DNA from: Clostridiaceae bacterium
GTDB taxonomy: Bacteria > Bacillota > Clostridia > CAYPLH01 > DUMO01
DNA length: 64,000 nt
Reading direction: 5' to 3'
NCBI GenBank assembly: GCA_012839865.1
Contig: DUMO01000024.1
Location: 19,075 to 83,074 of the forward strand
Part shown: piece by piece, positions 10,709-60,906 of the stretch
Numbering within the stretch: position 1 is the stretch's first letter
Layout of the letters: each line of letters begins with the position of its first letter
Notes under the pieces: generated by a model
Database searches by the model: none
Told to the model about the DNA's origin: nothing
The model's input: the letters and a program-made list of their open reading frames with translations, nothing else
Made by a program: the position numbers and the translations under genes

Positions 10709-10748
10709 TGAAAATTTGAAAGTTCCGGTTTTGAATATTTAAAAAAAT

Positions 10749-12188
10749 TTAAGAGTTCCGGTTTTGAGCATTTTCCCCGCGGGGAAAATATTTTGATCTG
10801 ACAATACTGATAAGTGTATCCCTTGTGTTTAGTTCGGGATTTTCAAGCACCAGGTCAAGAATACCCTTTAAAATGTTTCCGATATCCTTTCCTTCCATCA
10901 ATCCCAGGGATATGAGATCATCTCCGTTAATTGCAAGATCGGATATTCCAAGGCATTGTTTTGAATGAACCAATTCCTCATAGGCAATCCTGACTTTTTC
11001 TATTTCTTCGCAATTTTTTTTGTAATTATCCGGGTTTTGAGCCATGGCACCAGCTTTTTTCAGCTTCAGCAACCTTTCAAAATCCCTGTTGCCCATCTTC
11101 TCAAGCCATTTACATATGGACTTTCTGGAATTTTCAATGGCTGCATCATGGTTTTCAACAAGCTTTACTACACTGTTAATCGTATTATTGTCGAATCTTA
11201 AATCCTTTAATATTTTATAACTCAGCCCTGCTGAAATTTCGCCATGTCCGGAAGGTTGAGAAATTCCCTTATGGTCTGCCCTGAGCCCTGTTGAAGGAGT
11301 ATGTGCATCAAAAAACAGAGGATGGGGCATTCCCTGCCTGTCTTCCCCTCCGGTCTCAGGTATCCCGATATCATGCAAAAGTGCTGCAAGACGCAGCACT
11401 ATATCCCTTTCAACATTTTCAATTGTTCTATATGTATGCTCATCCAACGTAAAAGCGCAGCCGGGATACTGTTGTTTGAACCCTATGCACTTTTTGAACT
11501 CAGGCATGATATGGTTCATAAGGCCCAATTCTGCAAGCTCCCTGACCTTTCCGGGAAAGTCTGAAATCAGGATTTTAACAAGCTCCGAGGCCACGCGTTC
11601 CCTACTTACTTTTTGCAGCAAAGCCATATTTTTTATAACAGCCTGCCTTGTATCATCGGATAATTCAAATCCCAACTGTGCGGAAAACCTGACAGCTCTC
11701 ATCATTCTCAGGGCATCCTCCGAAAACCGTTCATCTGCATTGCCTACACAGCGTATTACCTTTTCTTTTAGATCCAGCTGTCCTCCATAAGGGTCAACAA
11801 CCCCCCGGTGGTTGTTGTATGCCATAGCATTAATGGTAAAATCCCTGCGCTTCAAGTCTTCTTCTATGGAATCTGAAAAACTAACCTTGTCCGGCCTCCT
11901 GCTGTCCGAATATTCACCATCCACCCTGTAAGTCGTGATTTCAAAATTTTTTTCCTTTAAAACTACAGTAATGGTACCATGTCTAAGGCCTGTCGGAATT
12001 GTTTTCACATCTGAAAACAATTCCAGAACCTTTTGCGGCAGCGCATTTGTCGCAATATCCCAATCCTCCGGTTCTCTGCCAAGAAGCCGGTCCCTTACAC
12101 AGCCGCCTACTGCAAACCCTTCATATCCGTGTTTATTAAGCCTTTCGATAATATATCCGACTTCTTCAGGCAAATTTATTATCATCAC
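10749..12188 (-). CDS. cca: CCA-adding tRNA nucleotidyltransferase (with HD domain)
   Basis: A PolyA_pol head (GFAVGGCVRDRLLGREPEDWDIAT) followed by an HD domain (HD..IG motifs). Its start codon overlaps the galK stop. Confidence 0.9.
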   Translation of the reverse strand: MMIINLPEEVGYIIERLNKHGYEGFAVGGCVRDRLLGREPEDWDIATNALPQKVLELFSDVKTIPTGLRHGTITVVLKEKNFEITTYRVDGEYSDSRRPDKVSFSDSIEEDLKRRDFTINAMAYNNHRGVVDPYGGQLDLKEKVIRCVGNADERFSEDALRMMRAVRFSAQLGFELSDDTRQAVIKNMALLQKVSRERVASELVKILISDFPGKVRELAELGLMNHIMPEFKKCIGFKQQYPGCAFTLDEHTYRTIENVERDIVLRLAALLHDIGIPETGGEDRQGMPHPLFFDAHTPSTGLRADHKGISQPSGHGEISAGLSYKILKDLRFDNNTINSVVKLVENHDAAIENSRKSICKWLEKMGNRDFERLLKLKKAGAMAQNPDNYKKNCEEIEKVRIAYEELVHSKQCLGISDLAINGDDLISLGLMEGKDIGNILKGILDLVLENPELNTRDTLISIVRSKYFPRGENAQNRNS

Positions 12189-22422: not shown

Positions 22423-23760
22423 TCAATTGAAAATGCTTTGAGGTATGTTGATCCCCTTTTCCTTCAACTTTTTTACAAATCCGGGTACAATGCCTGTATA
22501 AACAAACTCACCTTTTACCTTTCCCCTGTTATCCACACCTTTTTGCTGAAACCTGAATATATCCTGCAGTGTTATTACATCTCCTTCCATTCCTTGCACC
22601 TCGGTTATATATGTAATCTTCCTGCTGCCATCCATAAGCCTTGACTGGTGAATAACAAGGTCAATGGCTGATGCAATCTGGTCCCTTATAGCCTTTAAAG
22701 GCAAGTTGAACCCCGACATCAACACCATTGTTTCAAGTCTTGCCAGCATGTCCCTTGGGGAGTTTGCGTGTCCTGTCGTAAGGGAACCGTCGTGACCCGT
22801 GTTCATTGCCTGAAGCATGTCCAGTGCTTCTCCTGACCTGACCTCTCCTACAATAATCCTGTCAGGACGCATTCTTAAGCTGTTTTTCACAAGATCACGG
22901 ATTGTTATTTCACCTTTCCCCTCCAGGCTTGCCGGTCTTGTCTCAAGCCTTATTACATGCTCCTGGGAAAGCTGAAGCTCTGCTGCATCTTCTATTGTTA
23001 TGATTCGCTCATCATTTGGTATAAAAGATGACAGTACATTCAGGGTTGTTGTCTTACCGCTTCCGGTCCCTCCCGAAACAATTATGTTCAGCCTTCCTTC
23101 GACGCAGTACCTTATAAGCTCTGCCATCTTTGAATTTAGAGTGTTAAAGCTGATCAAGTCCTCCATTTTAAAGGGGTCTTCAGAAAATTTTCTAATCGTA
23201 ATTGAAGGGCCATCTATGGCAAGTGGAGGAATAATGGCATTTACCCTGGATCCGTTAGGGAGCCTTGCGTCAACCATGGGAGAGCTTTCATCAATTCTCC
23301 TGCCAATAGGTGCTACAATCTTTTTTATTACATGCATCACATGGCTGTTGTTTTTGAATTTTACATCTGTCAGTACCAATTTCCCTTCCTTCTCAATATA
23401 TACCTGGTTATATCCGTTTACCATGATTTCAGTAACTTTATCGTCTCCAAGGAACCCGGTAATCGGTCCAATCCCGACAATTTCATCCAAAAGTTCCTCC
23501 CGGATTTTACTTTTCTGACTGGTTGTCAAGTTAAGGGCTTCCTGTTCGATATGCTTCGTAAGAATGGAATGAATTTTCTTTTTCAGTTCCTCGTTCTTAT
23601 CGGAGATTTCATCAAAATTAATATCCAGTTCATCAATTACCTTGTTATGTATCTTCATTTTTAAAATTGTATAAGGATCTGCTTTTTTTTCATTATACCT
23701 GCCAAATTTTCTGTCTGCATTTACCTCTTCCAGTCTTTTTACAAGAGACATTACCTTCAC
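22423..23760 (-). CDS. cpaF: Tad/Flp pilus assembly ATPase CpaF/TadA
   Basis: A VirB11/GspE-family secretion ATPase with Walker A SGGTGSGKTT and an Asp box. Confidence 0.9.
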   Translation of the reverse strand: MKVMSLVKRLEEVNADRKFGRYNEKKADPYTILKMKIHNKVIDELDINFDEISDKNEELKKKIHSILTKHIEQEALNLTTSQKSKIREELLDEIVGIGPITGFLGDDKVTEIMVNGYNQVYIEKEGKLVLTDVKFKNNSHVMHVIKKIVAPIGRRIDESSPMVDARLPNGSRVNAIIPPLAIDGPSITIRKFSEDPFKMEDLISFNTLNSKMAELIRYCVEGRLNIIVSGGTGSGKTTTLNVLSSFIPNDERIITIEDAAELQLSQEHVIRLETRPASLEGKGEITIRDLVKNSLRMRPDRIIVGEVRSGEALDMLQAMNTGHDGSLTTGHANSPRDMLARLETMVLMSGFNLPLKAIRDQIASAIDLVIHQSRLMDGSRKITYITEVQGMEGDVITLQDIFRFQQKGVDNRGKVKGEFVYTGIVPGFVKKLKEKGINIPQSIFN

Positions 23761-24929: not shown

Positions 24930-25895
24930 TCAATTCAATACTGGAATTTTAAGTACCTGTCCGGTTATGATAATATTCGGATCTTCAATATTGTTTGCTT
25001 CCATAATCAACTTGTAATTTTCATCGTTACCATAGAATTCCCGGCTGATTTTAACCAGGGTATCACCGCTTTTAACAGTATAATTTATATATTCAGTGCT
25101 GTTTGTTGCGTTATTGTCGTCTTCACAAGGTGTATCAGCATCTGTTTGGGAAGGTTCATCATAAGCCGGTATTGAAATCTCCTTCCATATTACTCCTTGG
25201 GTTTCTATTACACTGTCATCTTTCAAAGGCCTCAGGGCAAGCGTTATATTGCCTATGTTGTCAGCCAGTACAATCTTTTCCACATCAGTTGCGGCAACTG
25301 ACAAAGTAACTAAAAACATCGACGGAACATTTTCTGAAGACTTTTCTGTTTCATCCCTGTTTAACAGTTTATCAATTGCCAGGACTTCAATATTCTGAAG
25401 CAGCATCTTTGAAGAGTCATACCTGACAATCTCCGAATCCTCTGTTTTCTCGTCAAAAGTAGCGACTATATCAACAAAGTCACCAGGTTTGATTAATTGG
25501 GAAACCCCTGTGCTTCCTAATACGCTGATTGAAATTGCTCTATGGTTTTCCCTTACTCTAAGGCTCAATTCCGTTTCCAGGGCATCCAATAGCTTGTCAT
25601 GATGAAAGCCTTCATTTTTCAGTATGGTTTCCCTGGTGTACTTGCCTTCAATCTGGCTGTAATCACGCAAATAATCCGCAAAGATTGGATTATCTTCAAC
25701 TTCGATTTCTCGAATCATGTTCCTTTTAATTAAAGTTCTAGGAGGTATTACATCCGCGGCAACAAGAATTTTTGTCAAAGGAACTTCCTTTTCCGGCTCC
25801 TTTAAAGTTCTTAGATATACAAAAACAGCCACTGCAGCAATTGCAGCCAGCACAAATGATATTAAAACCAGTTTCTGTTCCGTACTTTTCATCAT
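24930..25895 (-). CDS. cpaB: Flp pilus assembly protein CpaB/RcpC with C-terminal LysM domain
   Basis: N-terminal TM helix, a SAF/CpaB core and a C-terminal LysM (YTVKSGDTLVKISREFYGN...TGQVLKIP). Confidence 0.8.
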   Translation of the reverse strand: MMKSTEQKLVLISFVLAAIAAVAVFVYLRTLKEPEKEVPLTKILVAADVIPPRTLIKRNMIREIEVEDNPIFADYLRDYSQIEGKYTRETILKNEGFHHDKLLDALETELSLRVRENHRAISISVLGSTGVSQLIKPGDFVDIVATFDEKTEDSEIVRYDSSKMLLQNIEVLAIDKLLNRDETEKSSENVPSMFLVTLSVAATDVEKIVLADNIGNITLALRPLKDDSVIETQGVIWKEISIPAYDEPSQTDADTPCEDDNNATNSTEYINYTVKSGDTLVKISREFYGNDENYKLIMEANNIEDPNIIITGQVLKIPVLN

Positions 25896-25902
25896 GATAC
25901 TC

Positions 25903-26880
25903 CTACCTTGACAGTTTTACACCGTATGCTCCCGTATCATTCAAACTCATATCTATTACACCTTTTGTAACGTATTGCACAAATCTGCCAACCAGCTCTG
26001 CATTTCCTCCGCTATTGCGCACTTCCTCAACATAAAACTGTGCAAAGCCCACCACCTGCACCTGGCCTCTTCCATTAACCTCAAGGGTATCCACCAACGG
26101 AAGTGTCCATAAGCGGATGGAATCTCTGCTGAAATTGTTAAAGGTGCTGTTCTCCTGCTGTATATAATCCCTTATTGCATTGATGGCGCCTGACATGTTT
26201 CCTGTTTCAGTATCAATATAATCTCCGACTGATAATGTACCGCTGAAACCATAAAGGGCATTGTTCCTGTAAGTGCTTTGCCCGGTGCCTCCAAGGGCAA
26301 CGGTGCCATAATTGCCGCAATAACCGTCTCCTGCGCCTTTTTTGAGTATTACGACATCACCATAGGTATAATCAAAAATTTCAACTGCAAAAGGTCTTAT
26401 TCCCCCATTCACAGTTTTTATTGGTCCTATAACCGCCTTTGTCGCAGCAGCCACATCACTGTTATATATGCCCAGTATGGGGGCGAACAAGTGGTTCACG
26501 CTCAAATTGCCTTCTATTTCAATGCTTTTATTGTCAGGGCTTATTTTAATTACGGTATTGTCAGGATCAATATTGTTTTTAATAAGATATTCCAAAGCGA
26601 CACTTCTTGCCTTCGCTTCACCGGCAGGCAGCTCAAGAGCCGCTGCCAGGGCTGCTGCATCAATGGCATTGTACAATCTGGCTTTTTCTATATATACCAT
26701 CCCGACATCAACAGAAAGGGCCATAAACCCCAACAAAGCGCTTAGCAGCAGGCATGTAATAATTGAGACGCTTCCTTTTTTGCCTTTAAACAGCAGCAGC
26801 TTCTTATGACTCCTTGCCTGTACCATTCCGGATAAGGCAAGCAATTCAAAAACTGAATGTTCCACTGTCATCACCTTCAT
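25903..26880 (-). CDS. TadG-like (TadE/G-like N-terminal domain) pilus-associated protein
   Basis: KGSVSIITCLLLSALLGFMALSVDVGMVYIEKARLYNAIDAAALAAA is the TadE/G-like N-terminal motif. The remainder is a large Gly-rich extracellular domain. Confidence 0.6.
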   Translation of the reverse strand: MKVMTVEHSVFELLALSGMVQARSHKKLLLFKGKKGSVSIITCLLLSALLGFMALSVDVGMVYIEKARLYNAIDAAALAAALELPAGEAKARSVALEYLIKNNIDPDNTVIKISPDNKSIEIEGNLSVNHLFAPILGIYNSDVAAATKAVIGPIKTVNGGIRPFAVEIFDYTYGDVVILKKGAGDGYCGNYGTVALGGTGQSTYRNNALYGFSGTLSVGDYIDTETGNMSGAINAIRDYIQQENSTFNNFSRDSIRLWTLPLVDTLEVNGRGQVQVVGFAQFYVEEVRNSGGNAELVGRFVQYVTKGVIDMSLNDTGAYGVKLSR

Positions 26881-27206
26881 TCAATTCTCATGGAGACTTT
26901 GGCATGCAGTACAATTGTGTCGTTGAACAATAGATTAATTACAGGTACTGTAAGTTGATAATTATAATTTGCTTCCACGGTAAGAGTATTTCCTGATATC
27001 CTGCTACCCGGAAGCGGTGTTATATTAATTTCCAGATGGCTTTCATCCAGGACAGGAGAGGCAGACATCATCAAATGCATTATTTCAGCATCTGAACTAC
27101 CTGTAATGCCTGCCCTGGCTCCTTCCCGGACTGCGTTGTTAAGTGCAAGATATGCATTTAAAACCATACCAAATTGCGCAATTCCCATAACAATTATCAG
27201 CAGCAA
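26877..27206 (-). CDS. TadE-like pseudopilin (N-terminus probably extends upstream to about 27266; start codon unclear)
   Basis: In-frame upstream codons read GGQSLAEFAVVLPLLLIIVMGIAQFG. This is the classic TadE-like processed N-terminus. RBS AGGAGG is present at about 27240. Confidence 0.6.
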   Translation of the reverse strand: MLLIIVMGIAQFGMVLNAYLALNNAVREGARAGITGSSDAEIMHLMMSASPVLDESHLEINITPLPGSRISGNTLTVEANYNYQLTVPVINLLFNDTIVLHAKVSMRIE

Positions 27207-27288: not shown

Positions 27289-27383
27289 AAAAAAACAGGG
27301 ACTTTGGTCCCTGTTTCTACTGTTCAGAAAGACATAAAAAATGAACAGCAGCCCTGACAATGCTGTTTACAGCCGTTGTTCAT
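27289..27383 (-). terminator. Tandem rho-independent terminators after the degS/degU-like operon
   Basis: The first is CAGGGACcaaaGUCCCUG followed by U7. The second is a long imperfect hairpin (AUGAACAaCgGC...GCuGcUGUUCAU) followed by U6. Confidence 0.6.
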
Positions 27384-27395
27384 CTTGCGGGATTA

Positions 27396-27477
27396 GTGAC
27401 GTACTCCCTCCTACGCTCTCACTAAAGTGAGCAAGGCGGCTTAGAAGCGGAAGACTTCTTGCTGCTATATGTTAAAC
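27396..27477. repeat. Copy A of a structured ~80-bp intergenic repeat, immediately 3' of the response-regulator stop
   Basis: It shares GACGTACTCCC and CTTCTTGCTGCTATATGTTAAAC blocks with copies at 32566-32640 and 60847-60906. It contains an internal hairpin CTCAC-TAAA-GTGAG. Confidence 0.7.
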
Positions 27478-27480: not shown

Positions 27481-28155
27481 CTATTCCTTGTTGCCAAACT
27501 TCGACTTATAATAATCTTCGATATTATTCTCAATGGAAAAGATGGTTGCCTGGACACGATGGCTTACGTTCAGCTTCCTGAAGATATTGGTAATGTAGTT
27601 TTTCACCGTCTTTTCCGATATATACAGGGCATCCGCTATTTCCTTGTTGCTCAAACCTCTCGATATATTAAGCAAAATTTCAATTTCCCTCTGTGAAAGA
27701 CAGTCAAAAACACCTTCGGCATTTTTATTTTTTATTTCTGAGAACAGCAAAGATATCAGCGCTTTATCAATATACTTTTCTCCATTATAGACTGTTCGAA
27801 TTGCACTCACAATCTGAGTTCCTGCAGAATCCTTCAGTACATATCCGTCTGCTCCTATATTAATTGCCTTGTTAATCGTCAGCCTGTCATTCTCTATGGT
27901 AAGCATAATCACTTTGACATTCTCATATTGCTGCTTTATTTTTTGGAGCAATGTAATACCGTCAATAACCGGCATATTTACATCCAGCAGCAATACATCA
28001 GGCTGATACCTTTTCAGCATGACCATTACTTCTTCTCCGTTTTTTGCTTCACCATAAATGGCAATATCATCTTCCATGCTTATAATTCTTCTTAAACCCT
28101 GTAGTATCAGGTCATGATCATCTGCAATCGAAACTCTAATTTCCTTTTTTTTCAT
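27481..28155 (-). CDS. DegU-like response regulator (NarL/LuxR family)
   Basis: A REC domain (ADDHDL, LLLDVNMP) and a C-terminal LuxR-type HTH (LSQREIEILLNISRGLSNKEIADALYISEKTVKNY). Confidence 0.85.
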   Translation of the reverse strand: MKKKEIRVSIADDHDLILQGLRRIISMEDDIAIYGEAKNGEEVMVMLKRYQPDVLLLDVNMPVIDGITLLQKIKQQYENVKVIMLTIENDRLTINKAINIGADGYVLKDSAGTQIVSAIRTVYNGEKYIDKALISLLFSEIKNKNAEGVFDCLSQREIEILLNISRGLSNKEIADALYISEKTVKNYITNIFRKLNVSHRVQATIFSIENNIEDYYKSKFGNKE

Positions 28156-29185
28156 CCTTAATCACCTCTCGATTAACCGGCAGCTTTATGGTATATGTGG
28201 TCCCTTTCCCTTTTTCAGACTGTATCTTTAAACTGCCCCTCAGTTGATTTACCCTGTCCTCTATACCTATCAATCCATAAGAAATCCCCTTGTTTCTTGC
28301 GTTTATCAAGGTTTCCTCCACGTCAAACCCAATACCGTCATCAGATATAACCAGCATTAAATATTTCGTGCCATAATCAAGCTTGATTTGAGCATGGCTT
28401 GCCCTGGCATGCTTTTTTATATTATTAAAAGCTTCCTGGATAATACGATAAACTGCAACTTGTATGATAGGCTCAATTTCTTTATGTACTGGCTTCATTT
28501 TTATGTCCAGTTCTATTCCTGTCTCGTGCATTATCATTTTTACGGTCTCGGAAATTGTTTCATTCAAACCCAAATCATCCAGCGCCATGGGTCTTAAATC
28601 AAAAATGATATCCCTTACTTCCTTAAGGGCCCTTTTGACACTTTGTTTCAGGTCTTCCAATTCTTTAAGGCCTTCGTTGAAATCCCTTTCAATCACCATC
28701 TTGCAAATATCTGCCTTCATTACTGCATTGGCCATATGCTGCGCCGGCCCGTCATGAACATCCCTTGCAATTCTCTTTCTTTCGTTTTCCTGGGCCTCCA
28801 ATATCTTTATGCTCAATTGTATTTCGGAATGGGCCTCAGCACCTTCCAGGGCTGTAACAACATCCCCCTCCAGGTACATTAAAGCAACACTCATCTGACT
28901 CATCACTTTTTCAGCACTTTCAATATTCTGCAATGATTTTTTCAATGCTATTTCTATTATTGACCTCCTTTTTAACAGTTCCTTCTCTTTGTTTTTTTCG
29001 ATAATCAGTGCTATTCGAGTGTCTTCTGCGTTTTTATAGGCAGCTTTAATATCTTCTTCCGTAAATGTATCAAACTTTTTTGAAACCTCTGCAAGTTTTT
29101 GTCTCGCAACTTTATCCTGCTTTTCCAGTTCATCCACCCTTGCAATAGTCTGCTTGATATCCTGTTTAATTGCAGCCAACTCCAT
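28136..29185 (-). CDS. DegS-like cytoplasmic sensor histidine kinase
   Basis: No TM segment. An N-terminal DegS-type coiled-coil sensor domain and the H-box [18 protein letters not shown] (compare DegS IHDGPAQMLANVMMRSEL). HATPase_c follows. The gene overlaps the regulator start by 20 bp. Confidence 0.85.
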
Positions 29186-31212
29186 TTCAAGATTCTCGGA
29201 GACGGAGTCGGTGACGGTGTCGGTGTCGGAGTCGGTGTCGGAGTTGGCGTCGGTGTCGGAGTCGGTGTCGGAGACGGTGTCGGTGTCGGACTCGGGCTCG
29301 GACTCGGGCTCGGGCTCGGCGACGATGTCGGCGTCGGGCTCGGGCTCGGACTCGGCGACGGACTCGGGCTCGGGCTCGGGCTCGGACTCGGACTCGGGCT
29401 CGGACTCGGGCTCGGCGACGGACTCGGCGACGGACTCGGGCTCGGTGACGGAGTCAATTCAGCCGGGTTTATAACAGCGCTGATTACCCTGACTTCCTGG
29501 GTTACCGTAAAGGTTACGGGAAGCATATTATCTGCCGAAATTTCCACGTTTGCCGTATATACTCCGGCCGGCAGCCCGTCTTTTGCCCTTATGGTAAATG
29601 TGGTGGAAGGTGTCACCTCATCAAGATTTTTAGCTTCAGGCTGGGTGATTTCAAAGGCATCCGCATCATCCCCGCTCAAGGTTACCGTAAGATTTGCAAT
29701 ATCCTCAGTTGCCTCCCTTGTCACTGTTATACTCCTTGTCTCCTGCATACCGGAAGCATAACCTATACCAAGTATCGTCATAACCTGATCGTCGATAGGT
29801 ACTATACTGCCTGTTGCCCACCTGGCATAAAGCGTGACGTTACTGTCACCCATGACAAGGGTCGAGCCTTGCAAATAATCCGCTCCTTTTCCATCGGCTT
29901 TGGTGTTCCAGCCTTTAAAGACATGACCTGTTTTTGACAGTTCATTGATGTTACCCGTGACAGTAACAGTTTGTCCCGGCTTATATACATTGGTGTCAAC
30001 GGGCACATCGCCCCCGGTATTCCCGTTCCCGTCATAGGTTACAGTGTAAAAGTCAACTTCCGCAACATTGAAGGTGTATCCATTAGGCAGCTTGCCGGGT
30101 GCAGTTATGTTGAGATCTATTGTAAAGTTCTCTTCACCCGTCAGTGTCAGCAAATAAGGCTGACCGTTCTCCACCTGCTCATCGTTTATGGTAATAATCG
30201 CGCCTTCCAGTGAAACTTCCGGTATAATGCTGAAACTCTCCAGTTCTTTTGGTATTTCCAGTACATAGTCGCTTATGTCCTTATTGAATGAAGGCATCAG
30301 ATCAAACCCGGGCAGTCCTTCAAATATCACGTTGTCTATATATGCCGGTGCAATGGCGGAGGACTCTACAGGCGCAGGATACATATCCACTACAAACATG
30401 TCTTTAAATTTATAGCTGTCATTTACCTTTATTTCAGCTGCCAGTACACACTGCCCTGCCTTCAGCGCTTTAAGGTATCCATCCTCTAACACTGCATTTT
30501 GGTCATCGGAGGCCATCCATATACCCGCTGCTTCGTCATTTTCGCCTGTTATTCTCAGAATTCCGCCTCCGAGATAAACCGGGTTTTCCTTTGGTATAAC
30601 CGAATATACATCCAAAGTATCATCAGATGAAACCTTCTGGATATCTCCCGTTATGCGCATAAGTTCCTTCTCACCCTGGGGTACCACAGGTTGCTGGTTG
30701 CCTTTAAAATGATAAATATAGTTCTTTATAATTGTAATCGGCTCATCGCCAAACCCATACACAATTTCATTCTTGCTTGTAATCAAAAGGGTGCCGAACC
30801 CCCGCCTCATATAAGCCGGATTATCCGTTATTTCAATGGCATTTTCCCTGTAAAAACCCTCGATGAGATTATGCCGTATTCCAAGGCCATAAGTACCCGG
30901 CCAGAGGAACGTGGTTTCCCCGTCAATTTTAAAGTGTGTCGGGACGGTGACGTATATGGTTGAATCATCTTCCACATTTACATTCTGGTAACCGATTATA
31001 TATTCATTACCTCCCGCGTCTTTCAGATACACTTCCCACTGGTCCGGATCATCCCTGAGGTAGCTTAGGTTGTCCCCCTTTATCTGAATAACCCTGTATT
31101 TGTCTTCATGATACAATTTGTTGGGAGAAATATATGAATATTGTACATTCGGCATATCCACAAAGGACGGCATGGCAACCACGTAGGCTTTTAAGTATGA
31201 CGTATGATTCAC
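29011..31212 (-). CDS. Cell-surface-type protein with cadherin-like and Listeria-Bacteroides repeat domains, ending in an SP/TP linker; probably a fragment or fusion
   Basis: A cadherin-like beta-sandwich ([10 protein letters not shown]...SFSIIPEV), a Listeria/Bacteroides repeat ([13 protein letters not shown]...[12 protein letters not shown]) and a C-terminal (SP)n(TP)n tract. There is no signal peptide. The last about 60 codons are an out-of-frame read through the degS-like start. Confidence 0.5.
29186..29460. repeat. Tandem 12-bp repeat array (GAGTCGGTGTCG-like units) encoding an (SP/TP)n linker on the minus strand
   Basis: A direct read shows about 22 near-identical hexamer and dodecamer units. 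They translate to PSPSPS...TPTPTP in the frame of the upstream surface-protein gene. Confidence 0.9.
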
Positions 31213-31564: not shown

Positions 31565-32344
31565 TCAGAAAACCCGCATTCCAACGAAATATCTATCACC
31601 TTTTTTTGTGCCCAGAAGCAACTTGGCGGCATGTTCACACCTGCTGTAATATAGCATGTTCAAAAAGGTTGAACCGAATTTTTCTTTAATGTCGTGGGAT
31701 AAATGGTAAAGACTTATATCAAGCTCTTCTGCAATATCTTTAAGACTTGGATTCAACTCAAATTTGCTCCCCAGGCAATTTATAATTTTTCTGAGCCTTT
31801 GCACCAGCTTTTCATCGAAGGCTTCAGTGCCGTATCCCCAGCGTAAAAAGTCGAAATTGTATGTAACATGAACAAGAAGTTCTGTTAAATTATTCTTTAT
31901 GCTTGCCGAATACCCGGGTTGGAGCCTGTCGCCATTTACCGCCAGAACGAGCCTGGCGACATGCTCTTTGAGTTCATTGTACCTTTGGGGCAGTTCCCCT
32001 TCGAAATAGGCGGAACAGCAATAGATATACAAGTACTTGTTATCCGGAAAAAGGTTTCGAAAAAATTCCCCTGAAATCTGTATAATCAGCGTTTCATTAT
32101 TTTCGCTTTGACTAATGCAATGCAGCTCGTTAACATTTACAAGTGCTATATCGTTTTCTTTTAATTGAATTTTTTCATCACCGATGACCATATTGACTGA
32201 ACCCTTCCGGACTTGCACAATTTCCATAGTATCATGCCAATGATAGGGATACTTCCCAACATAACCGGAAAACATTTTTACAGGCAGTCCTTCGGAAAAA
32301 TCAAATAACTCAGGACGCATACATTCCCCCGTTATATAAAGCAA
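31565..32344 (-). CDS. AraC family transcriptional regulator (cupin sensor + AraC HTH)
   Basis: An N-terminal cupin-like domain and a C-terminal AraC-type HTH pair. Confidence 0.8.
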   Translation of the reverse strand: MLYITGECMRPELFDFSEGLPVKMFSGYVGKYPYHWHDTMEIVQVRKGSVNMVIGDEKIQLKENDIALVNVNELHCISQSENNETLIIQISGEFFRNLFPDNKYLYIYCCSAYFEGELPQRYNELKEHVARLVLAVNGDRLQPGYSASIKNNLTELLVHVTYNFDFLRWGYGTEAFDEKLVQRLRKIINCLGSKFELNPSLKDIAEELDISLYHLSHDIKEKFGSTFLNMLYYSRCEHAAKLLLGTKKGDRYFVGMRVF

Positions 32345-32565
32345 TGTTATAAAACATTTTATCCATTAATAGAGAAACCGTCAATTGATTTTAGAAAGCT
32401 GCAGTTGAAAATTGTCGAAATTTTTTCATTTCAGTAGTAGTTTTTGCAAACAATCAGCTCTGGTGAATTAATAAAATGTCAGTTTTTTGAACAGATGAAA
32501 TGAATACAGAACAATAACAATTAGCTTTATATTGTTAGAAAGCCAGGTACATGCCTGGCAATTCA

Positions 32566-32640
32566 TCTCCCGCCTACGCTCCCGCTAAAGTGGGCAAGGT
32601 GGCTTAGAGGCGGGAGACTTCTTGCCTCTATATGTTAAAA
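32566..32640. repeat. Copy B of the structured intergenic repeat
   Basis: TCTCCCGCCT...AGGCGGGAGA forms a perfect 10-bp outer stem. The inner hairpin CCCGC-TAAA-GTGGG shows compensatory changes relative to copy A. It ends in CTTCTTGCCTCTATATGTTAAAA. Confidence 0.7.
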
Positions 32641-32715: not shown

Positions 32716-33813
32716 TTAGAAATATACGGGTTTTCCGGTCCTGGAAGATTCATAGATAGCTTCAAGAATCTGTGTCACCACATAAGCTTCCTCTGGTTTT
32801 ACAACCGGTTCTGTGTCTTTCAGTATACACTCAATCCATAACCTTGCTTCCCTGTCCCCGGCACTTTCTGATCTTCCTTCATAATAGTCGGCACCTTTTG
32901 CCTGCAGAGAAATATTTTTGGTATACAGTCTTCCTTTATCCTCACCGTTGATTCTCAGGCCTTCTTCCATGTCTGCGCCGCCTTCGGTGCCGCACAAGGT
33001 TGTCTTTGCTTCTTTAACATCCAATGTATTGAGGGCCCAGCTGGACTCAAGTATTATGGTAGCACCGTTTTTCATTGTTACAAACCCAAAGGCGGAATCC
33101 TCAACTGTGAATTTTTCAGGATCCCAGGGACCCCATGCATTTGCTGCATTTTTCCTTCCGGAGAGTTTATGGTATACATTCCCAACTGCGTAATTGGGCT
33201 CATAATTATTCATCATCCATAATGTAAGGTCCAGTGCATGGGTGCCTATGTCAATCAACGGACCTCCACCCTGAAGCTCTTCATTCAGGAACACTCCCCA
33301 GGTAGGCACGGCACGTCGGCGAACGGCATGAGCCTTCGCAAAATAAATCTCGCCTAAATCTCCCCTGTCACATACTTCTTTCAGATAAAGTGAATCTGTT
33401 CTGAATCTGTTTTGATAAGCTATTGATAGTTTCTTACCTGTCTTTCTTGCTGTGTCGCACATAAGCTTGGCTTCTTTTGAATTCATGGCCATGGGTTTTT
33501 CACACATGACGTGTTTCCCTGCTTCAAGGGCTGCCACTGTCATTTCAGCATGAAATTTGTTTGGAGTGCAAATATGTACCACATCAATACTTTTGTCAGC
33601 AAGCAACTCCTCATAGGATTGGTACACCTTTGAATTCTCACAACCAAACTCCTTTGCCGCTTTTATTGCATTGCCGTTAACACTGTCATAAAACGCCACC
33701 ATTTCAACACTATCCAATTTTTTCAGAGCGGGCATGTGCTTTCCAAAAGCAATACCTCCGCAACCGATAACACCTGCTTTCAATTTTTTACCCAAGTTTT
33801 CCACTCCTCTCAA
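32716..33813 (-). CDS. Gfo/Idh/MocA family NAD(P)-dependent oxidoreductase
   Basis: An N-terminal Rossmann motif (GVIGCGGIAFGKHMPAL) and the Gfo/Idh/MocA C-terminal domain. Confidence 0.9.
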   Translation of the reverse strand: MRGVENLGKKLKAGVIGCGGIAFGKHMPALKKLDSVEMVAFYDSVNGNAIKAAKEFGCENSKVYQSYEELLADKSIDVVHICTPNKFHAEMTVAALEAGKHVMCEKPMAMNSKEAKLMCDTARKTGKKLSIAYQNRFRTDSLYLKEVCDRGDLGEIYFAKAHAVRRRAVPTWGVFLNEELQGGGPLIDIGTHALDLTLWMMNNYEPNYAVGNVYHKLSGRKNAANAWGPWDPEKFTVEDSAFGFVTMKNGATIILESSWALNTLDVKEAKTTLCGTEGGADMEEGLRINGEDKGRLYTKNISLQAKGADYYEGRSESAGDREARLWIECILKDTEPVVKPEEAYVVTQILEAIYESSRTGKPVYF

Positions 33814-41176: not shown

Positions 41177-44100
41177 TTATTCTGCAGTGCTGTTTATTAC
41201 CACCTTGCTGAGGTTGATTGACCAATATGGTGCAGCAGGCGGATCATTACCGTCATGGACGGTTTTATTGAGTGCGTTTACTTCACCGGTCGGTCTGATC
41301 TTGATCTTATATATACCATCGCTCAGCACAGGGCTTGTGTATATGAGCACATCCGAGGTTTTAGCTTCCGCATACACATCTACAAGCTGCTCTGCAATAA
41401 CAACTTTATCATTTGCATCAAGGATGCTGATTGCAACGATACCTCCATATGGGGCGTTCTCTGCGTATACCGATATGCCAATGCCCTTGAATTTGTAAAC
41501 TACATACGCATCTGTGGCACCCCTGTCATTGTATATAGTCTTAGCCCCGCTAACTGCCCATTTGGTTGTTGCCTTGCCATGTAAATTCATGGCAGTACCG
41601 TCGGAAAATGTATATTGGTTAAGTTCATCGCCTTGATTTGCCTTGTCAAAATTCAGTGTCACCTCAGTCGCTACTGGTGCTGTGGCTTTGTTTATAACTG
41701 TAATTTTGAAGAGGTTGACAGACCAGTACGGTGCAGTCGGAGGATCATTGCCATCGTTGACGGTTTTGTTATTTGTATTTACTTCGCCTGTAGGTCTGAT
41801 CTTGAGCACGTAGACACCCTTGGCAAGTTCGGGGCTGGTGTACACAAGGGCATTGGCTTCCTTGGCCTCAGCATACAGGTCCACAAGCTCTTCTGCCTGT
41901 ACAACCTTTCCGTTTTCGTCAAGTATGCTTATTGCAACAATTCCGCTGTACGGAGCCCGTTCAGCATACAGCATGACCTGAGTGCCTTCAAATTTGTAAG
42001 CCACGTAAGCATCTGCCGCACTCCTGTCGTTGTACAGGCTCTTTCCTCCACTGACGGCCCATTTGGTTGTTGCCTTGCCATACAAGTTACCGGCAGTACC
42101 GTCGGAGAATGTGTACTGATTTACTTCTGTGCCCTGGTTTGCTTTATCGAAGTCCAGAGTCAGCTCTTCCGGGGTCTCCTGCTGGGCAGGTGTCGGTGTC
42201 GGCGTAGGTGTTGGTGTAGGTGTGGGTGTAGGTGTGGGATCAGGTGCCTTGCTGGCAATGGTGACTTTACTTAAATTGATAGACCAGTAAGGTGCCGTCG
42301 GAGGATCATTGCCATCGTTAACGGTTTTGTTGTTTGCATTTACTTCACCGGTAGGTCTTACATTGAGCACATAAATACCCCTGGCAAGTTCCGGACTGGT
42401 AAATACAAGAACATTAGCCTCTTTGGGGTCTGCATACAGATCCACAATCTCATTGTGTACAACGCTGCCATTTGCATCAAGTACGCTTATTTCAACTTTA
42501 CCGCTATATGGTGCGCGTTCAGCATACAGGGAAATCTGTGTACCCTCAAACTTGTAAGCAACATAGGAATCTGTTGCACCCCTGTCGTTGTACAGGGTCT
42601 TTCCTCCACTGACTGTCCACTTGGTTGTTCCTTTGCCATACAAAGTAGCTGCAGTACCATCGGAGTATGTGTACTGGTTGACATCGGTACCCTGGTTGGC
42701 CTTGTCAAAATCCAGAGTCAGTTCTGCCGGTATTGCAGGTGTAGGTTCAGGTGTCGGCTCAGGTGTCGGTAAAGCCGTTCCTTTAACAGCAACACCAACT
42801 CTGCTCACATTCACAGACCAGTATGGAGCAGTCGGAGGATCATTGCCATCGTTAACAGTCAGGTTGTTCTTATTGACTTCACCTGTAGGTCTTATCTTTA
42901 GCTTATATGTGCCCAAATCAAGTCTGGGGCTTGTGTAAACAAGTACATTCTGTTTTCTTGCTTCTCCATAAAGATCAATTATTTCTTCTGCATGTATGAC
43001 TTTGTCATTTGCATCCAGTATGCTTACGGCTGCCTGACCGCTGTAAGGAGCATTTTCACCAAACAGCAATATCTGTGTACCGGTGAAGGTAAATATAACA
43101 TAGCTGTCCGGTGCGGCTCTGTCATTATACAAGCTATTGGCTGAACTTATTGTCCAGTTGGTAGTTCCTTTACCGAATATTGTGGTTCCAGTTCCGTTAT
43201 CATAGGTAAACTGGTTAATTCCGGTACCATGGTTGTCTTTGCCGAAATTGTAATATTCAATTACTTCACCGGGCCATGGAGTCGGTGACGGGTCTGGAGC
43301 GGGTGTAGGTGTAGGAGTCGGAGTCGGTGATGCATCCGGTACGGGTGTCGGTGTCGGTGCTGCGGGTACAGGTATCGGGGTAGGCATCGGTATTATACCC
43401 CAGTAAAGGTTTTCAAGGAAACGGATATCCGGGGCGGCGCCAGAAGCAAGCCTGGAATTTCCGCTTGCACTTAAAGTCCTGGATACGGCATAACCTTGAA
43501 TATCAGAATTGCCACCCAGCGCGAGTTCTGCATTCGGTGCATAGATAACACCTGCATCAACTTTTACATTTCCATCAGCTTTCACTGAACTTCCACCTGC
43601 TACGAGATTGCCAACCAGTTTGCTGTTCCCGCCAAATTCAACATCAGCCTTCTGAGCATATATGGAGCCGTAAATTGCAGTATTCCCGCCAATAGTTACC
43701 TTATTGCTTCCCAGATAGTAAATTATAGCATCGTCGGGGTTGCCTCCTGCATTGATTCCCATGCCTTCAATCTCAATACTGTCTTTTACAAACAGAATCA
43801 ATTTGCCATTCCCTGTTTTGTTTATTTTTATGCTTCCATTCTGGGCTATTTTTAATGTATTGCAGGTTATAATTATATCCTCGTCGCCAATATCCACCCA
43901 TAACGGCTTCCTTATCAGTACATTGCCATAGGCAGCACTTTCGCTTATGGCAGCTTTTCCTACAGCTAATGGACTGGTGGCCAGGTCTCCCCTGTTCTCG
44001 AGAACGGGAACATCAGGAGCATTCGGCATGCGATAATCTCTGCCTGCTGATGCAAAGGTCTCACCCTTCACAGTTGCAGAACCGGAAACAGATATGCCAT

Positions 44101-46462
44101 CATTGCCTGCATTCGTACCCAGGTTACCGGTTATGCTTGCTGAACCTTGCAATTTGATATTGCCCAGTGAGAAAATCATATCCACCTTTGGTACACTGAA
44201 ATGTACCGTTCCATTTACAAGGCTGATATCAAAAGTACCCTGTGGAACATTAACTGTTACCCATCCATCACCTTTTGCCTTAACATTGGCGGTCTCGCTT
44301 CCGAGTTTTACTCCGGATATTCCGGGGTAATAGAAGGTCACATCTGTTCCGGGAGATACAATACAGCCATTTTTATCGTTCATGTAGATACTTACATTAT
44401 CATTCGAAGTAAAGCCCTGTTTCAGGGAAGATCCATCGCTGAAGCTCTTTCCGCTTCTTACAAAATAGAAGCCTGTTGAGCCCTTATCGTTGCGATACAT
44501 TGCAGCAAGACCCTGGAACGCGAAGTTGTCATATTTAACTTCTTTTGCTCCTGAAGATTCCAGAGCATAGTCTATTGCATTGCTGTTATGATATATAATT
44601 GCACCGGAGTAATCATTTCCGGAAATGCTTATCATGTCTGCTTTCTTATGATTGGCATCACTTGGGAAGAGTACTGTAACAATATTCTTCTTCCCTGTTG
44701 TTGCATCAGTTGAATATGTTGAATACAAGTACCTTGCAATAAATGAATTGCCATAACTTCCGATGGCGCCCTTCTTAATTTCGGTATAATCAGGCGCAGT
44801 GCCCAGGAAAATGTTTAAATCGACGTTTTTTCCGGTTATCTTGTTCACAGTCCATTTATACTCTTTGTCGGGGTGAACCACAGTGTAACTGTCAGACGGC
44901 GGATGCAGTGCAACATGCGCTGTCTTCCCGGGAGTTTTTGCCGTCAGCTCATCAAAGAGAACCCAATACCCGTTGTTAACACCATCAGAAGATATTGAAA
45001 CGAGGTTCCTGATATGCTTGCCATTTGCCAGGGCTCCTCCTGAATCTCCTGATGCGTAGCTCAAAAGGTCGGATACAAAACCTTCAGATATTCCGGCGCC
45101 ATATTTGGCTACATGGTCATTTGTTGCCGGCGGGTTGTATTCATTTGTAAATTTATAATCTATAAGCGCTGTATTGCCTGATACAGCCCTGTTGCTTATG
45201 TAATCCCATGTAAAGTCTTCTACTCCGCTTCCCCAGTTGTTGTAGCCCGAGTTAACCAGCAGAAGTTCACCGTATGCAGCAGTATTTATGGCATTGACTT
45301 CCTTATGGCTGTGACCATCGTCAGATTTGGGATTCCACAAAACTGCTCTCAGAGCGTTGGGATCATCAGTGTGCTCAAAAAGGTATGCACCGCCGTCATA
45401 GTAAATCTTGCTCTTTGCAGGTTCTGCTTCAGGCATGTCGGTATCAAGGAGAACATAATTCAGGAAGCGGCCGTTCGGGAGACTGTAGCCCTCCATAATC
45501 CATGCTGCATATTTTGCGGCATCTTCAGAAAATCTGCCTGCCTTGAATATGGAGTATCTGCGGGCCATTGTATTGTTATAGACCGAATCTCCAAATACCC
45601 ACATACGTTTATTTGCAGTTACTGCATGACCATAAAGCCATTCATAGAAACTTTTGATCTGGTAGTTATTGTAGGTATCATAAAGTCCCGTATAGGCCAA
45701 TACGTCCATAAAATACTGCTTGGCATGCCTGTCTGAATTGAACCTGGCGTTTCCGTAACCTGGCCCCGGCAGGCTCACACCGTCTGCTGACAAATAGCGT
45801 GTAACACTGTAAACACCGCTGTTGATAACCTGATTAAGACGTTTAGTGTCATTTTTATAGACCGTCCAAATTCCCCGGGCTCCCCAGAGGGCTGAATCCC
45901 AGCTGAAATCATATGCCCAGAACCAGTCATTCATCTTTTGAAGAATTTCTTCAGCAGTGGTCAACTGTTCCTGGGTAAGTTCAGGATGAATAACATCCAG
46001 GGCAATAACTGCGGCAAAAAATGCAGTACTTGGCATAACGGCATACGTCCAGTTGTTGCTTGCCAATTCATCATATATATTGCCTTCCACACCGCTCTTG
46101 AAATACTTCATTGTGTCAAGTATTTTGGCGATATACTTATCCTTGTTAACTGGATCCAATATGTATGCCAGTGCACAGGTATCCATGATGTCAGCTATCC
46201 TGAAGCACTTGTTTGTGTAGTTGTCAGCCACACTATACACAAGATTGTTTGCATCGCTGATTGCTGTAGTCTTAAGTGACTTCCAGGGTTCCCTGGCAGC
46301 ACGGCTTCTGAGTTCTTCAAACTCTGAAGACTTTACCAACAAAAAAGGGTGCACTTGTTCCGAAGCGCTGATACTTTCAGGAACGACTAAAACTGTCGAA
46401 ACCGTGAAAATAATAACCAACATTAATGTTGATAATATTTTCAAGAATCCCTTTTTACTCAT
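41177..46462 (-). CDS. Secreted multidomain polysaccharide lyase (heparinase II/III-like catalytic region, beta-helix region, and 4 tandem ~165-aa modules joined by PT linkers)
   Basis: A signal peptide (MSKKGFLKILSTLMLVIIFTVSTVLV). The N-terminal 650 aa has an alpha/alpha-toroid plus heparinase II/III-like beta-sandwich character. Gly-rich GGN repeats suggest a beta-helix. PT linkers occur, and four repeats of a W/Y-rich module each end in NDGNDPPTAPYWS. No dockerin or SLH domain. Confidence 0.8.
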   Translation of the reverse strand: MSKKGFLKILSTLMLVIIFTVSTVLVVPESISASEQVHPFLLVKSSEFEELRSRAAREPWKSLKTTAISDANNLVYSVADNYTNKCFRIADIMDTCALAYILDPVNKDKYIAKILDTMKYFKSGVEGNIYDELASNNWTYAVMPSTAFFAAVIALDVIHPELTQEQLTTAEEILQKMNDWFWAYDFSWDSALWGARGIWTVYKNDTKRLNQVINSGVYSVTRYLSADGVSLPGPGYGNARFNSDRHAKQYFMDVLAYTGLYDTYNNYQIKSFYEWLYGHAVTANKRMWVFGDSVYNNTMARRYSIFKAGRFSEDAAKYAAWIMEGYSLPNGRFLNYVLLDTDMPEAEPAKSKIYYDGGAYLFEHTDDPNALRAVLWNPKSDDGHSHKEVNAINTAAYGELLLVNSGYNNWGSGVEDFTWDYISNRAVSGNTALIDYKFTNEYNPPATNDHVAKYGAGISEGFVSDLLSYASGDSGGALANGKHIRNLVSISSDGVNNGYWVLFDELTAKTPGKTAHVALHPPSDSYTVVHPDKEYKWTVNKITGKNVDLNIFLGTAPDYTEIKKGAIGSYGNSFIARYLYSTYSTDATTGKKNIVTVLFPSDANHKKADMISISGNDYSGAIIYHNSNAIDYALESSGAKEVKYDNFAFQGLAAMYRNDKGSTGFYFVRSGKSFSDGSSLKQGFTSNDNVSIYMNDKNGCIVSPGTDVTFYYPGISGVKLGSETANVKAKGDGWVTVNVPQGTFDISLVNGTVHFSVPKVDMIFSLGNIKLQGSASITGNLGTNAGNDGISVSGSATVKGETFASAGRDYRMPNAPDVPVLENRGDLATSPLAVGKAAISESAAYGNVLIRKPLWVDIGDEDIIITCNTLKIAQNGSIKINKTGNGKLILFVKDSIEIEGMGINAGGNPDDAIIYYLGSNKVTIGGNTAIYGSIYAQKADVEFGGNSKLVGNLVAGGSSVKADGNVKVDAGVIYAPNAELALGGNSDIQGYAVSRTLSASGNSRLASGAAPDIRFLENLYWGIIPMPTPIPVPAAPTPTPVPDASPTPTPTPTPAPDPSPTPWPGEVIEYYNFGKDNHGTGINQFTYDNGTGTTIFGKGTTNWTISSANSLYNDRAAPDSYVIFTFTGTQILLFGENAPYSGQAAVSILDANDKVIHAEEIIDLYGEARKQNVLVYTSPRLDLGTYKLKIRPTGEVNKNNLTVNDGNDPPTAPYWSVNVSRVGVAVKGTALPTPEPTPEPTPAIPAELTLDFDKANQGTDVNQYTYSDGTAATLYGKGTTKWTVSGGKTLYNDRGATDSYVAYKFEGTQISLYAERAPYSGKVEISVLDANGSVVHNEIVDLYADPKEANVLVFTSPELARGIYVLNVRPTGEVNANNKTVNDGNDPPTAPYWSINLSKVTIASKAPDPTPTPTPTPTPTPTPTPAQQETPEELTLDFDKANQGTEVNQYTFSDGTAGNLYGKATTKWAVSGGKSLYNDRSAADAYVAYKFEGTQVMLYAERAPYSGIVAISILDENGKVVQAEELVDLYAEAKEANALVYTSPELAKGVYVLKIRPTGEVNTNNKTVNDGNDPPTAPYWSVNLFKITVINKATAPVATEVTLNFDKANQGDELNQYTFSDGTAMNLHGKATTKWAVSGAKTIYNDRGATDAYVVYKFKGIGISVYAENAPYGGIVAISILDANDKVVIAEQLVDVYAEAKTSDVLIYTSPVLSDGIYKIKIRPTGEVNALNKTVHDGNDPPAAPYWSINLSKVVINSTAE

Positions 46463-53177: not shown

Positions 53178-53254
<77 letters not shown>

Positions 53255-53291: not shown

Positions 53292-53365
53292 TGGAGCGGG
53301 TGAAGGGAATCGAACCCTCGCAATCAGCTTGGAAGGCTGATGTTCTACCATTGAACTACACCCGC
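53292..53365 (-). tRNA. tRNA-Gly (anticodon TCC), CCA encoded
   Basis: Minus-strand sequence GCGGGTGTAGTTCAATGGTAGAACATCAGCCTTCCAAGCTGATTGCGAGGGTTCGATTCCCTTCACCCGCTCCA. The anticodon loop is CTTCCAA. Confidence 0.85.
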
Positions 53366-60673: not shown

Positions 60674-60846
60674 TCTTCAAAAGCAAAGCAATATTTTCAA
60701 TATTGATGCATACAACATGTAAAAACTCGCGGCTAGTTTCAGTACAGGCGACATAAAAGGCCTCCCGGCGATTTGCCGGCAGGCTTTTGGGAAATGTCTT
60801 TTATAATTTCTTTGTGATAAAGCTGAGTGAACATTACATCATACAG

Positions 60847-60906
60847 TACATGACGTACTCCCGCCGCCTAAAAGGCAGGAGGTTTCTTGCTGCCATATGT
60901 TAAACA
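60847..60906. repeat. Copy C (short form) of the structured intergenic repeat; it contains the sulfatase stop codon
   Basis: CATGACGTACTCCCGCCGCCTAAAAGGCAGGAGGTTTCTTGCTGCCATATGTTAAAC. It shares both end blocks with copy A. Confidence 0.65.

Follow-up and report, generated by a model that had tools for sequence, protein, structure and literature searches.

The window analysed here is a stretch of 64,000 nt (64 kb) from a Clostridiaceae bacterium (GenBank assembly GCA_012839865.1, contig DUMO01000024.1, positions 19,075 to 83,074 of the forward strand). The bacterium is uncultured and comes from a biogas fermenter, and the gene content suggests that it belongs to the Bacillota. It carries three related repeat copies, A, B and C, all on the minus strand, which lie behind the genes for a DegU-like response regulator (27481-28155), a Gfo/Idh/MocA oxidoreductase (32716-33813) and a sulfatase (60900-62306). 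A 21-nt block, TTTAACATATRGNNGCAAGAA (= TTTAACATATRGMRGCAAGAA), occurs exactly three times in the window with no mismatch (27456-27476, 32619-32639 and 60884-60904; 0.02 occurrences expected from shuffled sequences), and no further occurrence was found in the window even when three mismatches were allowed. In each copy, the block is followed by a C-rich/G-rich hairpin. The comparisons described below showed that the repeats resemble the left end (LE) and the right end (RE) of insertion sequences (ISs) of the IS200/IS605 family, and that the TTTAA directly 5′ of each repeat corresponds to the target-adjacent motif (TAM) of these elements. The refined limits of the three elements leave out this motif. 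The features at the three loci are as follows.

27472..27476, minus strand: TAM TTTAA of copy A, directly 5′ of the element and 4 nt past the TAG stop of the DegU-like response-regulator gene.
27396..27471, minus strand: copy A, a 76-nt gene-less LE/RE hybrid.
27455-27471, minus strand: 5′ part of the LE in copy A, CATATAGCAGCAAGAAG.
27403-27454, minus strand: single hairpin of copy A, the loop of which holds an extra inner hairpin CTCAC-TTTA-GTGAG (27418-27431).
27396-27408, minus strand: RE-type tail of copy A, GGGAGTACGTCAC.
27334..27384, minus strand: native terminator-like hairpin with UUUUUU, downstream of copy A and outside the repeat (-16.3 kcal/mol, z -2.3).
32635..32639, minus strand: TAM TTTAA of copy B, 75 nt past the stop of the Gfo/Idh/MocA oxidoreductase gene.
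32558..32634, minus strand: copy B, a 77-nt solo left end without an RE tail.
32537..32559, minus strand: native terminator-like hairpin GCCAGG-CATGTA-CCTGGC with UUUCU, abutting copy B with a 2-nt overlap (-11.1 kcal/mol, z -3.0).
60900..60904, minus strand: TAM TTTAA of copy C, the last three bases of which (60900-60902) are the TAA stop of the sulfatase gene.
60850..60899, minus strand: copy C, a 50-nt gene-less LE/RE hybrid.
60752..60788, minus strand: terminator-like hairpin with a U-run between convergent genes, downstream of copy C and outside the repeat (-19.7 kcal/mol, z -3.4).

The coding sequences upstream of the three repeats are all intact, with the sulfatase being full length in comparison with its homologs, and no effect on the neighbouring genes is evident. 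The gene next to copy A encodes a DegU-type response regulator (Response_reg and GerE domains) and has a DegS kinase gene upstream. Three related minus-strand copies at about these places had been described in an earlier note made from the DNA letters alone, and both the sequence and the alignments bear this out. The earlier note had also placed copy C across the stop codon of the sulfatase gene. The TAM of copy C does hold the stop TAA; however, the stop is undisrupted and the element begins directly after it. The additional hairpin described beside each copy is present as well. It is a separate hairpin with a U-run that follows on the minus strand and appears to be the terminator of the gene; these structures escaped the simple terminator scan. 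The hairpin downstream of copy A shows no similarity to the other copies.

Copies A and B share 87.7% identity over 73 nt, and all three copies can be aligned in register over 41 nt (repeat family D6). The arms of the copy A hairpin include mismatches and two U.G pairs, which would fit a 5′ arm derived from an LE and a 3′ arm derived from an RE. Copy B consists of CATATAGAGGCAAGAAG, a hairpin and an LE-specific tail, TGAATTGC, which pairs with the upstream GCAA, and it ends with ...GGGAGATGAATTGCC. Its hairpin has the perfect 10-bp outer stem that had been reported for it, TCTCCCGCCT/AGGCGGGAGA, and a 32-nt loop with an inner hairpin. Copy C consists of CATATGGCAGCAAGAAA, one simple hairpin with a bulged base, CCTCCTGCC / GGCGG[C]GGG, and an RE-type tail, GGGAGTACGTCAT. 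Two terminal blocks had been thought to be shared by all the copies. The 21-nt block is indeed present in A, B and C, but GACGTACTCCC is found only in A and C. The RE-type tail GGGAGTACGTCA(C/T) is likewise a feature of A and C, and the RE-type block GGGAGTACGTC (minus strand) is absent from copy B and present in A and C only. The loops of A and B are both expanded by 25-32 nt that include an inner hairpin, and these inner hairpins read as the earlier note described them. However, only one of the two pair-preserving changes proposed between them is a double change (T-A to C-G). The other is a change from A-T to G.T, and the G.T pair on the plus strand is an A.C mismatch on the minus strand.

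A search of other genomes, which had been suggested along with the first description of the repeats, recovered the 21-nt block together with the hairpin in two organisms. The exact 21-mer scan of 185,579 species genomes gave five matches, about the number expected by chance, and only those in Firmicutes bacterium UBA3738 (contig L001) and in a metagenome-assembled genome of Parasporobacterium sp. (contig L002) are real relatives, in which the block is followed by the same C-rich/G-rich hairpin. The scans of viral contigs (two matches) and of metagenome contigs (seven matches) gave only chance matches without the hairpin. A BLAST comparison of copy A with plasmids gave no match, and a literature search with the repeat sequence returned only papers on SARS-CoV-2 primers. 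In L002, the block and the hairpin are located ~90 nt upstream of a Y1_Tnp gene, tnpA (PF01797, E 3e-43), which is followed by an overlapping TnpB gene (OrfB_IS605, Cas12f1-like TNB domain). This arrangement indicates that the repeat is the LE of an insertion sequence of the IS200/IS605 family. The RE of L002 is positioned ~130 nt past the tnpB stop and reads ...GAACAGGAAG-CCCCCACTT...AAGTGGTGGGAG-TATGTCAC, followed by unrelated DNA; its tail is the RE-type tail GGGAGTACGTCAC found in copies A and C.

A homolog search with the TnpA of L002 returned thousands of proteins, many of them with 77-94% identity, and the contigs of five homologs were fetched for comparison of the ends. Six or more full-length relatives have a common anatomy of LE and RE, with Y1_Tnp and TnpB genes between the two ends in L002, L023-L055 and L056. 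The LE consensus comprises N-TTTAAC, 8 variable nt, GCAAGAAT (GCAAGAA), a hairpin with one bulged base (TCCCCCAYC / GRTGG[T]GGGA) and the same tail as in copy B, which pairs back to GCAA. The RE consensus comprises (A/G)GAAG, the hairpin CCCCCACTT...AAGTGG[T]GGG and then AG-(C/T)ATGTCAC, a layout that can be abbreviated as GAAG-hairpin-GGGAGYATGTCAC (GGGAG-YATGTCAC). The tail of copies A and C matches the RE ends ...GGGAG(T/C)ATGTCAC of L002, L023, L033, L042 and L048.

The motif TTTAA(C) is located 5′ of the LE in all three window copies, in the L001 copy and in every full-length relative found. When the same IS is found at different sites, the flanks change immediately outside TTTAA...GTCAC, with AGCC, AAAT and CACA after GTCAC in L023, L024 and L029, respectively. 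Comparison of the native sequence in L024, GGAATTTAA followed by AGCCGAC, with the junction in L023, ...GTCAC followed by AGCCGAC, indicates that the RE ends at GTCAC, that the TAM is TTTAA and that the element starts with the next C. These boundaries rest on this one comparison of native and junction sequences plus conservation. A boundary test by frame restoration in L024 gave a different boundary and was judged unreliable, since flanks are exchanged among L023, L024 and L030. The four nucleotides 5′ of the hairpin, which correspond to the guide, read GAAT in LEs and GAAG in REs, and the last guide base co-varies with the last base of the motif: a T is matched by an A at the left end, and a G by a C at the right end. 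By the pairing rule of IS608, GAAT fits the TAM TTAA and GAAG the transposon-encoded motif (TEM) TCAC; the base-by-base rule reportedly stems from work on IS608 by Barabas et al. in 2008. The base at the hairpin foot is T in all the full-length LEs, G in copies A and B, and A in copy C.

Several further features of the relatives were observed. The UBA3738 hairpin (L001 1-64, minus strand) is decayed and lacks the greater part of its 3′ arm, and the end of the contig falls inside the repeat copy, 42 nt after the block; an extended -10-like sequence, TGATATAAT, starts 26 nt upstream of its TTTAAC. One IS found at the same locus in two groups of contigs (L033/L040/L041 and L036/L038/L039) has two LE linkers, AGTCAGTG and ATTTAGTG (LE ~2355-2375). 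With the C in front of it (CAGTCAGT), the first of these is a repeat of the DNA just past the RE (L033 4221-4235), and it makes up a full 8-bp hairpin together with the left flank. The two linkers could have arisen if an empty allele served as the donor in a conversion or if the IS inserted into a terminator hairpin. The IS that encodes TnpA P0189 was found on ~190 contigs, and L023, L024, L029 and L030, which are ENA contigs from gut or digester metagenomes, mix two left flanks and three right flanks. One of these flank combinations implies a deletion of ~340 bp beside the RE, within an AAA-ATPase/PDDEXK_9 gene. The mixed flanks reflect either IS-mediated rearrangement or assembly chimeras across the repeat. 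The interval between the LE and tnpA contains a tandem duplication of 31 nt (ACTGGCAGAACATAACAAAACGGCAGAACGTT) in L043 (~850-920), whereas L042 and L044 have a single copy of this segment.

Covariance models were built from six foreign LEs (R1) and six foreign REs (R2), and no window sequence was used in them. With the filters off, the top three window matches of R1 are copies B (24.2 bits, E 0.0075), A (23.0 bits, E 0.014) and C (21.3 bits, E 0.032), and the next window match has 14.7 bits (E 0.88). With the default filters, copy B matches the whole R1 model (47.4 bits, E 1e-7). The best match of R2 with the filters off is copy C (17.8 bits, E 0.022) and the second is copy A (13.4 bits, E 0.26); copy B scores 7.1 bits (E 9.6). 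Another R2 match (23493-23548) falls within coding sequence without a hairpin and was dismissed as chance. Outside the window, R1 also finds the LE of L042 (67.8 bits), which was not part of its building set. On the Bifidobacterium longum plasmid NZ_CP084013.1, R1 matches ~60 nt before tnpA and R2 matches ~70 nt after tnpB (44.5 bits, E 3e-10), and the annotation of the plasmid names the two genes 'IS200/IS605 family transposase' and 'RNA-guided endonuclease TnpB family protein'.

A check for covariation, as had been proposed for the repeats, was carried out on 12 LEs. The pairing of the hairpin is kept across the family: 97.8% of the cells in the alignment are paired and 4 of 13 pairs are changed on both sides, compared with 30-60% paired in slid controls, although the alignment was fitted to the model and thus leans towards structure. 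The hairpin has a bulged T, resembling the extrahelical T of the IS608 ends (PMC5027513). The hairpin is under selection across the family, as expected of a structure recognised by the transposase. Searches of Rfam gave nothing relevant for the whole window at the gathering score, chance-level matches only around copies A and B with E up to 10, and no family for the full-length L002 element. The only Rfam matches at the gathering score in the window are two adjacent tRNA genes located elsewhere (53181-53254 and 53295-53365, minus strand).

Analysis of the positions of the copies is consistent with an origin by transposition. Only 39 of the 149 minus-strand TTTAA sites are intergenic, and the chance of finding all three copies outside coding sequence would be ~0.02 for unselected insertions, which points to the loss of insertions within genes. 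This loss, together with the TAA stop codon contained in TTTAA, would explain the positions of the copies at gene 3′ ends. The minus strand is G-rich throughout and carries 38 of the 45 genes. All three top strands are on this strand (n = 3), which is the orientation expected for the lagging-strand template under the direction of replication that we infer; insertion of IS200/IS605 elements is biased to the lagging-strand template (PMC5027513).

Taken together, the three repeats are very probably gene-less remnants of the ends of IS200/IS605-family elements of the IS605 type, which carry tnpA and tnpB. The Y1 transposase acts on single-stranded DNA, where it recognises subterminal hairpins (PMC5027513, PMC7290912). 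The conserved pairing is therefore the DNA-hairpin requirement of a transposase and not evidence for an RNA. In IS608 and ISGst, insertion occurs 3′ of a tetra- or pentanucleotide, the hairpins have an extrahelical T, and a DNA guide pairs with the TAM or the TEM, as exemplified by the TAM TTTAT and the TEM TTCAC of ISGst2 (PMC5027513, PMC10055086, PMC7290912). The suggestion of the earlier note that the repeats could be miniature mobile elements was thus right in kind, given their homology to the LE and the RE of IS200/IS605 elements.

Elements of this kind transpose as single-stranded DNA, with the Y1 (HUH) TnpA binding an imperfect subterminal hairpin at either end of the top strand. TnpA cleaves 3′ of the TAM at the left end and 3′ of the related TEM at the right end, and the excised circle re-inserts 3′ of another TAM, leaving neither inverted repeats nor a target duplication. 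In the window, full-length or gene-less copies may have inserted 3′ of TTTAA while the target strand was single-stranded at the replication fork. The two end hairpins are similar direct repeats, and deletion between them is the most likely origin of copies A and C as single-hairpin hybrids. Copy B would have become a solo LE by an internal or rightward deletion. The siting behind genes may combine the AT-rich TTTAA with its stop codon, the loss of genic insertions and strand-biased insertion at the fork.

Some of the observations weigh against this origin. No similarity to tnpA or tnpB was found in the 64-kb window and its flanks of ~20 kb, which came from other assemblies of the same organism (~84 kb in total). 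The window copies are thus derivatives rather than autonomous members, and the link to IS605 rests on homology to elements in other organisms. The E-values of copies A and C in the covariance models are modest (0.014-0.26) because of divergence and loop insertions. The exact 21-mer is rare in public collections; this rarity is weak evidence, as the 21-mer scans also missed the source organism's own copies, including the JGI contig that carries copy C. A full-length parent with the enlarged hairpin loop of the A/B type was found nowhere in the searches. Among the relatives, an inner hairpin comparable to those of A and B is present only in the RE loop of L050, indicating that loop expansions occur in this IS family. 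The four nucleotides 5′ of the copy B hairpin are GAAG instead of the LE-typical GAAT, and the guide rule may thus differ in the lineage of the window. Finally, the presence of three remnants in 64 kb, two of them alike in architecture, could mean that the single-hairpin form itself spreads.

This last point bears on whether the copies are instead active non-autonomous elements that are mobilised in trans by a TnpA encoded elsewhere and are still spreading, similar to palindrome-associated transposable elements (PATEs), miniature inverted-repeat transposable elements (MITEs) or repetitive extragenic palindromes (REPs). Gene-less PATE-like derivatives of IS605 elements are known, some of them mobilised in trans (PMC10055086, PMC7290912), and copies A and C still have the TAM, a hairpin preceded by a guide-like GAAG or GAAA, and an RE tail with the TEM-like GTCA(C/T) at its tip. 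The clustering of three copies within 64 kb and the end of the L001 contig inside a copy, as is seen at repeats, point in the same direction. However, current activity is unlikely. TnpA is a dimer with one hairpin bound at each end (PMC7290912), whereas A and C have a single hairpin and B is without a right end. With this requirement and the deviant base at the hairpin foot, A and C would probably be poor transposase substrates or inert. The copies are at least 12% diverged, unlike the products of a recent burst, and no tnpA is located within ~84 kb. Further copies were found neither in the window nor in the 20 kb of extra flank (searched with up to 4 mismatches, by blastn-short and with the covariance models). 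An empty-site allele would read GAAAGTTTAA joined to TAATCCCG at A and GATGTTTAA joined to GTACTG at C. Such empty sites were found at none of the A, B and C loci, and every other assembly recovered carries the copy unchanged, with copy B identical in three further metagenome samples and copy C likewise in one JGI sample and in assemblies from ENA and Logan.

Two more specific fates of the remnants were also considered. Copies A and C could be a minimal, REP-like unit that is mobilisable in Bacillota, an evolutionary step from IS200/IS605 elements to REPs, or they could have been co-opted as RNA elements within 3′ untranslated regions (UTRs); both are quite improbable. In the first case, one hairpin would carry both the TAM-side and the TEM-side cleavage motifs. 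The second case would build on the transcription of the copies and on the last stem of the TnpB guide-RNA scaffold, which A and C retain.

A functional 3′-UTR RNA of the upstream genes, acting as a stabiliser, a processing site or a small RNA, is very improbable. All three copies are in the sense orientation, with a stop codon before them and a terminator-like hairpin behind, and are probably transcribed, and some U.G pairs of the outer stem of copy A work on the sense strand only. A stable hairpin is possible for copy B, the only copy with an exceptional folding energy (-27 kcal/mol, z -2.7), whereas A and C fold no better than shuffled sequence (z -0.31 and -1.5, respectively). The inner hairpin of B has the A.C mismatch on precisely this sense strand. 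The three genes are functionally unrelated, no Rfam family matches, and the sequence is explained by homology to transposon ends beside tnpA and tnpB; in the relatives, the same sequence is located upstream of tnpA and not in a 3′ UTR. The earlier note had read the preserved pairing as the mark of a selected RNA structure, possibly a stabiliser, a terminator or a small RNA. This reading is unsupported, because the copies have no U-run of their own and no Rfam match, and because their 3′-end positions are explained by TTTAA and selection; the pairing itself is expected for transposase DNA hairpins. No result points to a secondary use of the transcribed copies as RNA. Two regulatory readings were rejected. 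As terminators, the copies lack their own U-runs and the separate downstream hairpins serve this role; for promoters, a single weak sigma-70-like match spans A and there is none at B.

Other recombination sites (integron attC, Xer/dif-like sites or REPs served by a REP-associated tyrosine transposase (RAYT)) were rejected on missing defining features and are barely credible: although the plus-strand end GTTAAAC conforms to GTTRRRY, the consensus of attC R′, ATATGTTAAA is similar to the XerD arm of dif, and REPs are also hairpins with a conserved 5′ motif derived from IS200/IS605-like ends, the other end has GACGTAC... or CAATTCAT... instead of R′′ (RYYYAAC), there is no second dif arm and no cassette array, no integrase, Xer or RAYT gene was seen nearby, and the conserved blocks match the LE and the RE of the IS605 type, including the LE- and RE-specific tails.

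Other features of the window were observed beside the repeats. Directly downstream of the DegS/DegU-like pair and copy A are Tad/Flp-type pilus genes (24930-27206; RcpC/CpaB with LysM, TadG-like and TadE-like). Just downstream of copy B is an AraC-family open reading frame (ORF; 31565-32344, minus strand), which has a ligand-binding domain and no helix-turn-helix domain by Pfam and is followed by a 352-nt gap. The short gene model recurs in three other samples, and it may be a truncated gene. Long runs with a 12-nt (sometimes 18-nt) period, GGTGTCGGAGTC-like, are located at 29172-29470, 42159-42264 and 43266-43371 within large minus-strand ORFs (29011-31212, a Listeria-Bacteroides repeat protein, and 41177-46462, 1761 aa), and probably encode acidic or Ser/Thr/Pro-rich linkers. 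The 1761-aa ORF also contains three or four diverged tandem repeats of ~500-560 bp with 62-83% identity (41205-43100), which correspond to repeated protein domains. At 10711-10773, two direct 30-nt repeats, AAAATTTGAAAGTTCCGGTTTTGAATATTT, with a spacing of 33 nt, begin in the gap preceding the feoA/feoB-like genes, and the second repeat extends into the 3′ end of the ORF 10749-12188; they may form an operator pair.

The assignment of the repeats to IS ends removes a false lead, since the supposed new family of covarying structured RNAs is debris of transposon ends on this reading. Conserved pairing alone does not prove an RNA, as the DNA hairpins of single-strand transposases co-vary likewise. 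The comparison also defines the ends of a widespread and apparently unnamed IS605-type subfamily in Bacillota from the gut and from digesters, to which a copy in Bifidobacterium is related, and the defined ends could aid annotation and the prediction of TAMs for the TnpB nucleases of this subfamily. IS200/IS605 ends, their hairpins and gene-less PATE-like derivatives are already well known, and the single-hairpin LE/RE hybrid is a minor curiosity of element decay.

Comparison with IS605-type elements such as IS608 of Helicobacter pylori and ISGst of Geobacillus stearothermophilus showed close agreement in anatomy. As in these elements, there are no terminal inverted repeats and no target duplication: the two termini of the window family (CATATAG... 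and ...GTCAC) show no inverted repetition, and the flanking DNA is free of duplication. Both ends carry an imperfect subterminal hairpin that contains a bulged base, and a 5-nt motif is located directly 5′ of the LE (TTTAA here, compared with TTAC in IS608 and TTTAT in ISGst2). The motif at the right-end tip is GTCAC here and TTCAC in ISGst, and a 4-nt guide precedes each hairpin foot, with its last base co-varying with the motif. The Y1 TnpA and TnpB of the full-length relatives are also shared, and the same-strand orientation on the gene-rich strand (n = 3) may be. In contrast, the window copies are gene-less; B is only an LE, and A and C have one hairpin joining an LE part to an RE tail. 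The loop expansion of 25-32 nt in A and B and the hairpin-foot base that deviates from the LE consensus are further differences.

In the IS200/IS605 family, the region downstream of tnpB encodes the scaffold of the guide RNA (omega RNA or right-end element RNA, reRNA) (PMC10055086, PMC8612924). In the full-length relatives, the RE hairpin with the GGGAG-YATGTCAC tail forms the 3′ end of this region, and copies A and C keep the last part of it. However, they hold only the last ~45-60 nt; the upstream scaffold hairpins present in L002, L023 and L048 are missing, and no tnpB is located near the window copies.

REPs and their paired forms (REPINs) are short hairpins with a conserved 5′ motif, are evolutionarily tied to the ends of IS200/IS605 elements, are often located behind genes and were formerly interpreted as stabilisers of mRNA. 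The hallmarks of the REP/RAYT system are a linked RAYT gene, a 20-40-nt hairpin with GTAG, inverted pairs (REPINs) and a high copy number. Unlike this system, the window shows no RAYT or Y1 gene, no GTAG, no inverted partner and only three copies in ~84 kb, and its repeats match the ends of ordinary ISs bearing tnpA and tnpB.

PATEs resemble the window copies in being short, non-coding and intergenic and in consisting only of IS200/IS605 end sequences. PATE-like copies occur in Haloquadratum, Halanaerobium and Geobacillus (PMC3119063, PMC7290912, PMC10055086), and a Halanaerobium PATE-like element of 271 nt keeps the LE hairpin and a complete RE (PMC7290912). In contrast, A and C (76 and 50 nt) have a single hybrid hairpin and B is without an RE. 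Given these incomplete PATE features, the mobility of A, B and C is doubtful. Thus, the window copies are PATE-like in origin rather than canonical PATEs.

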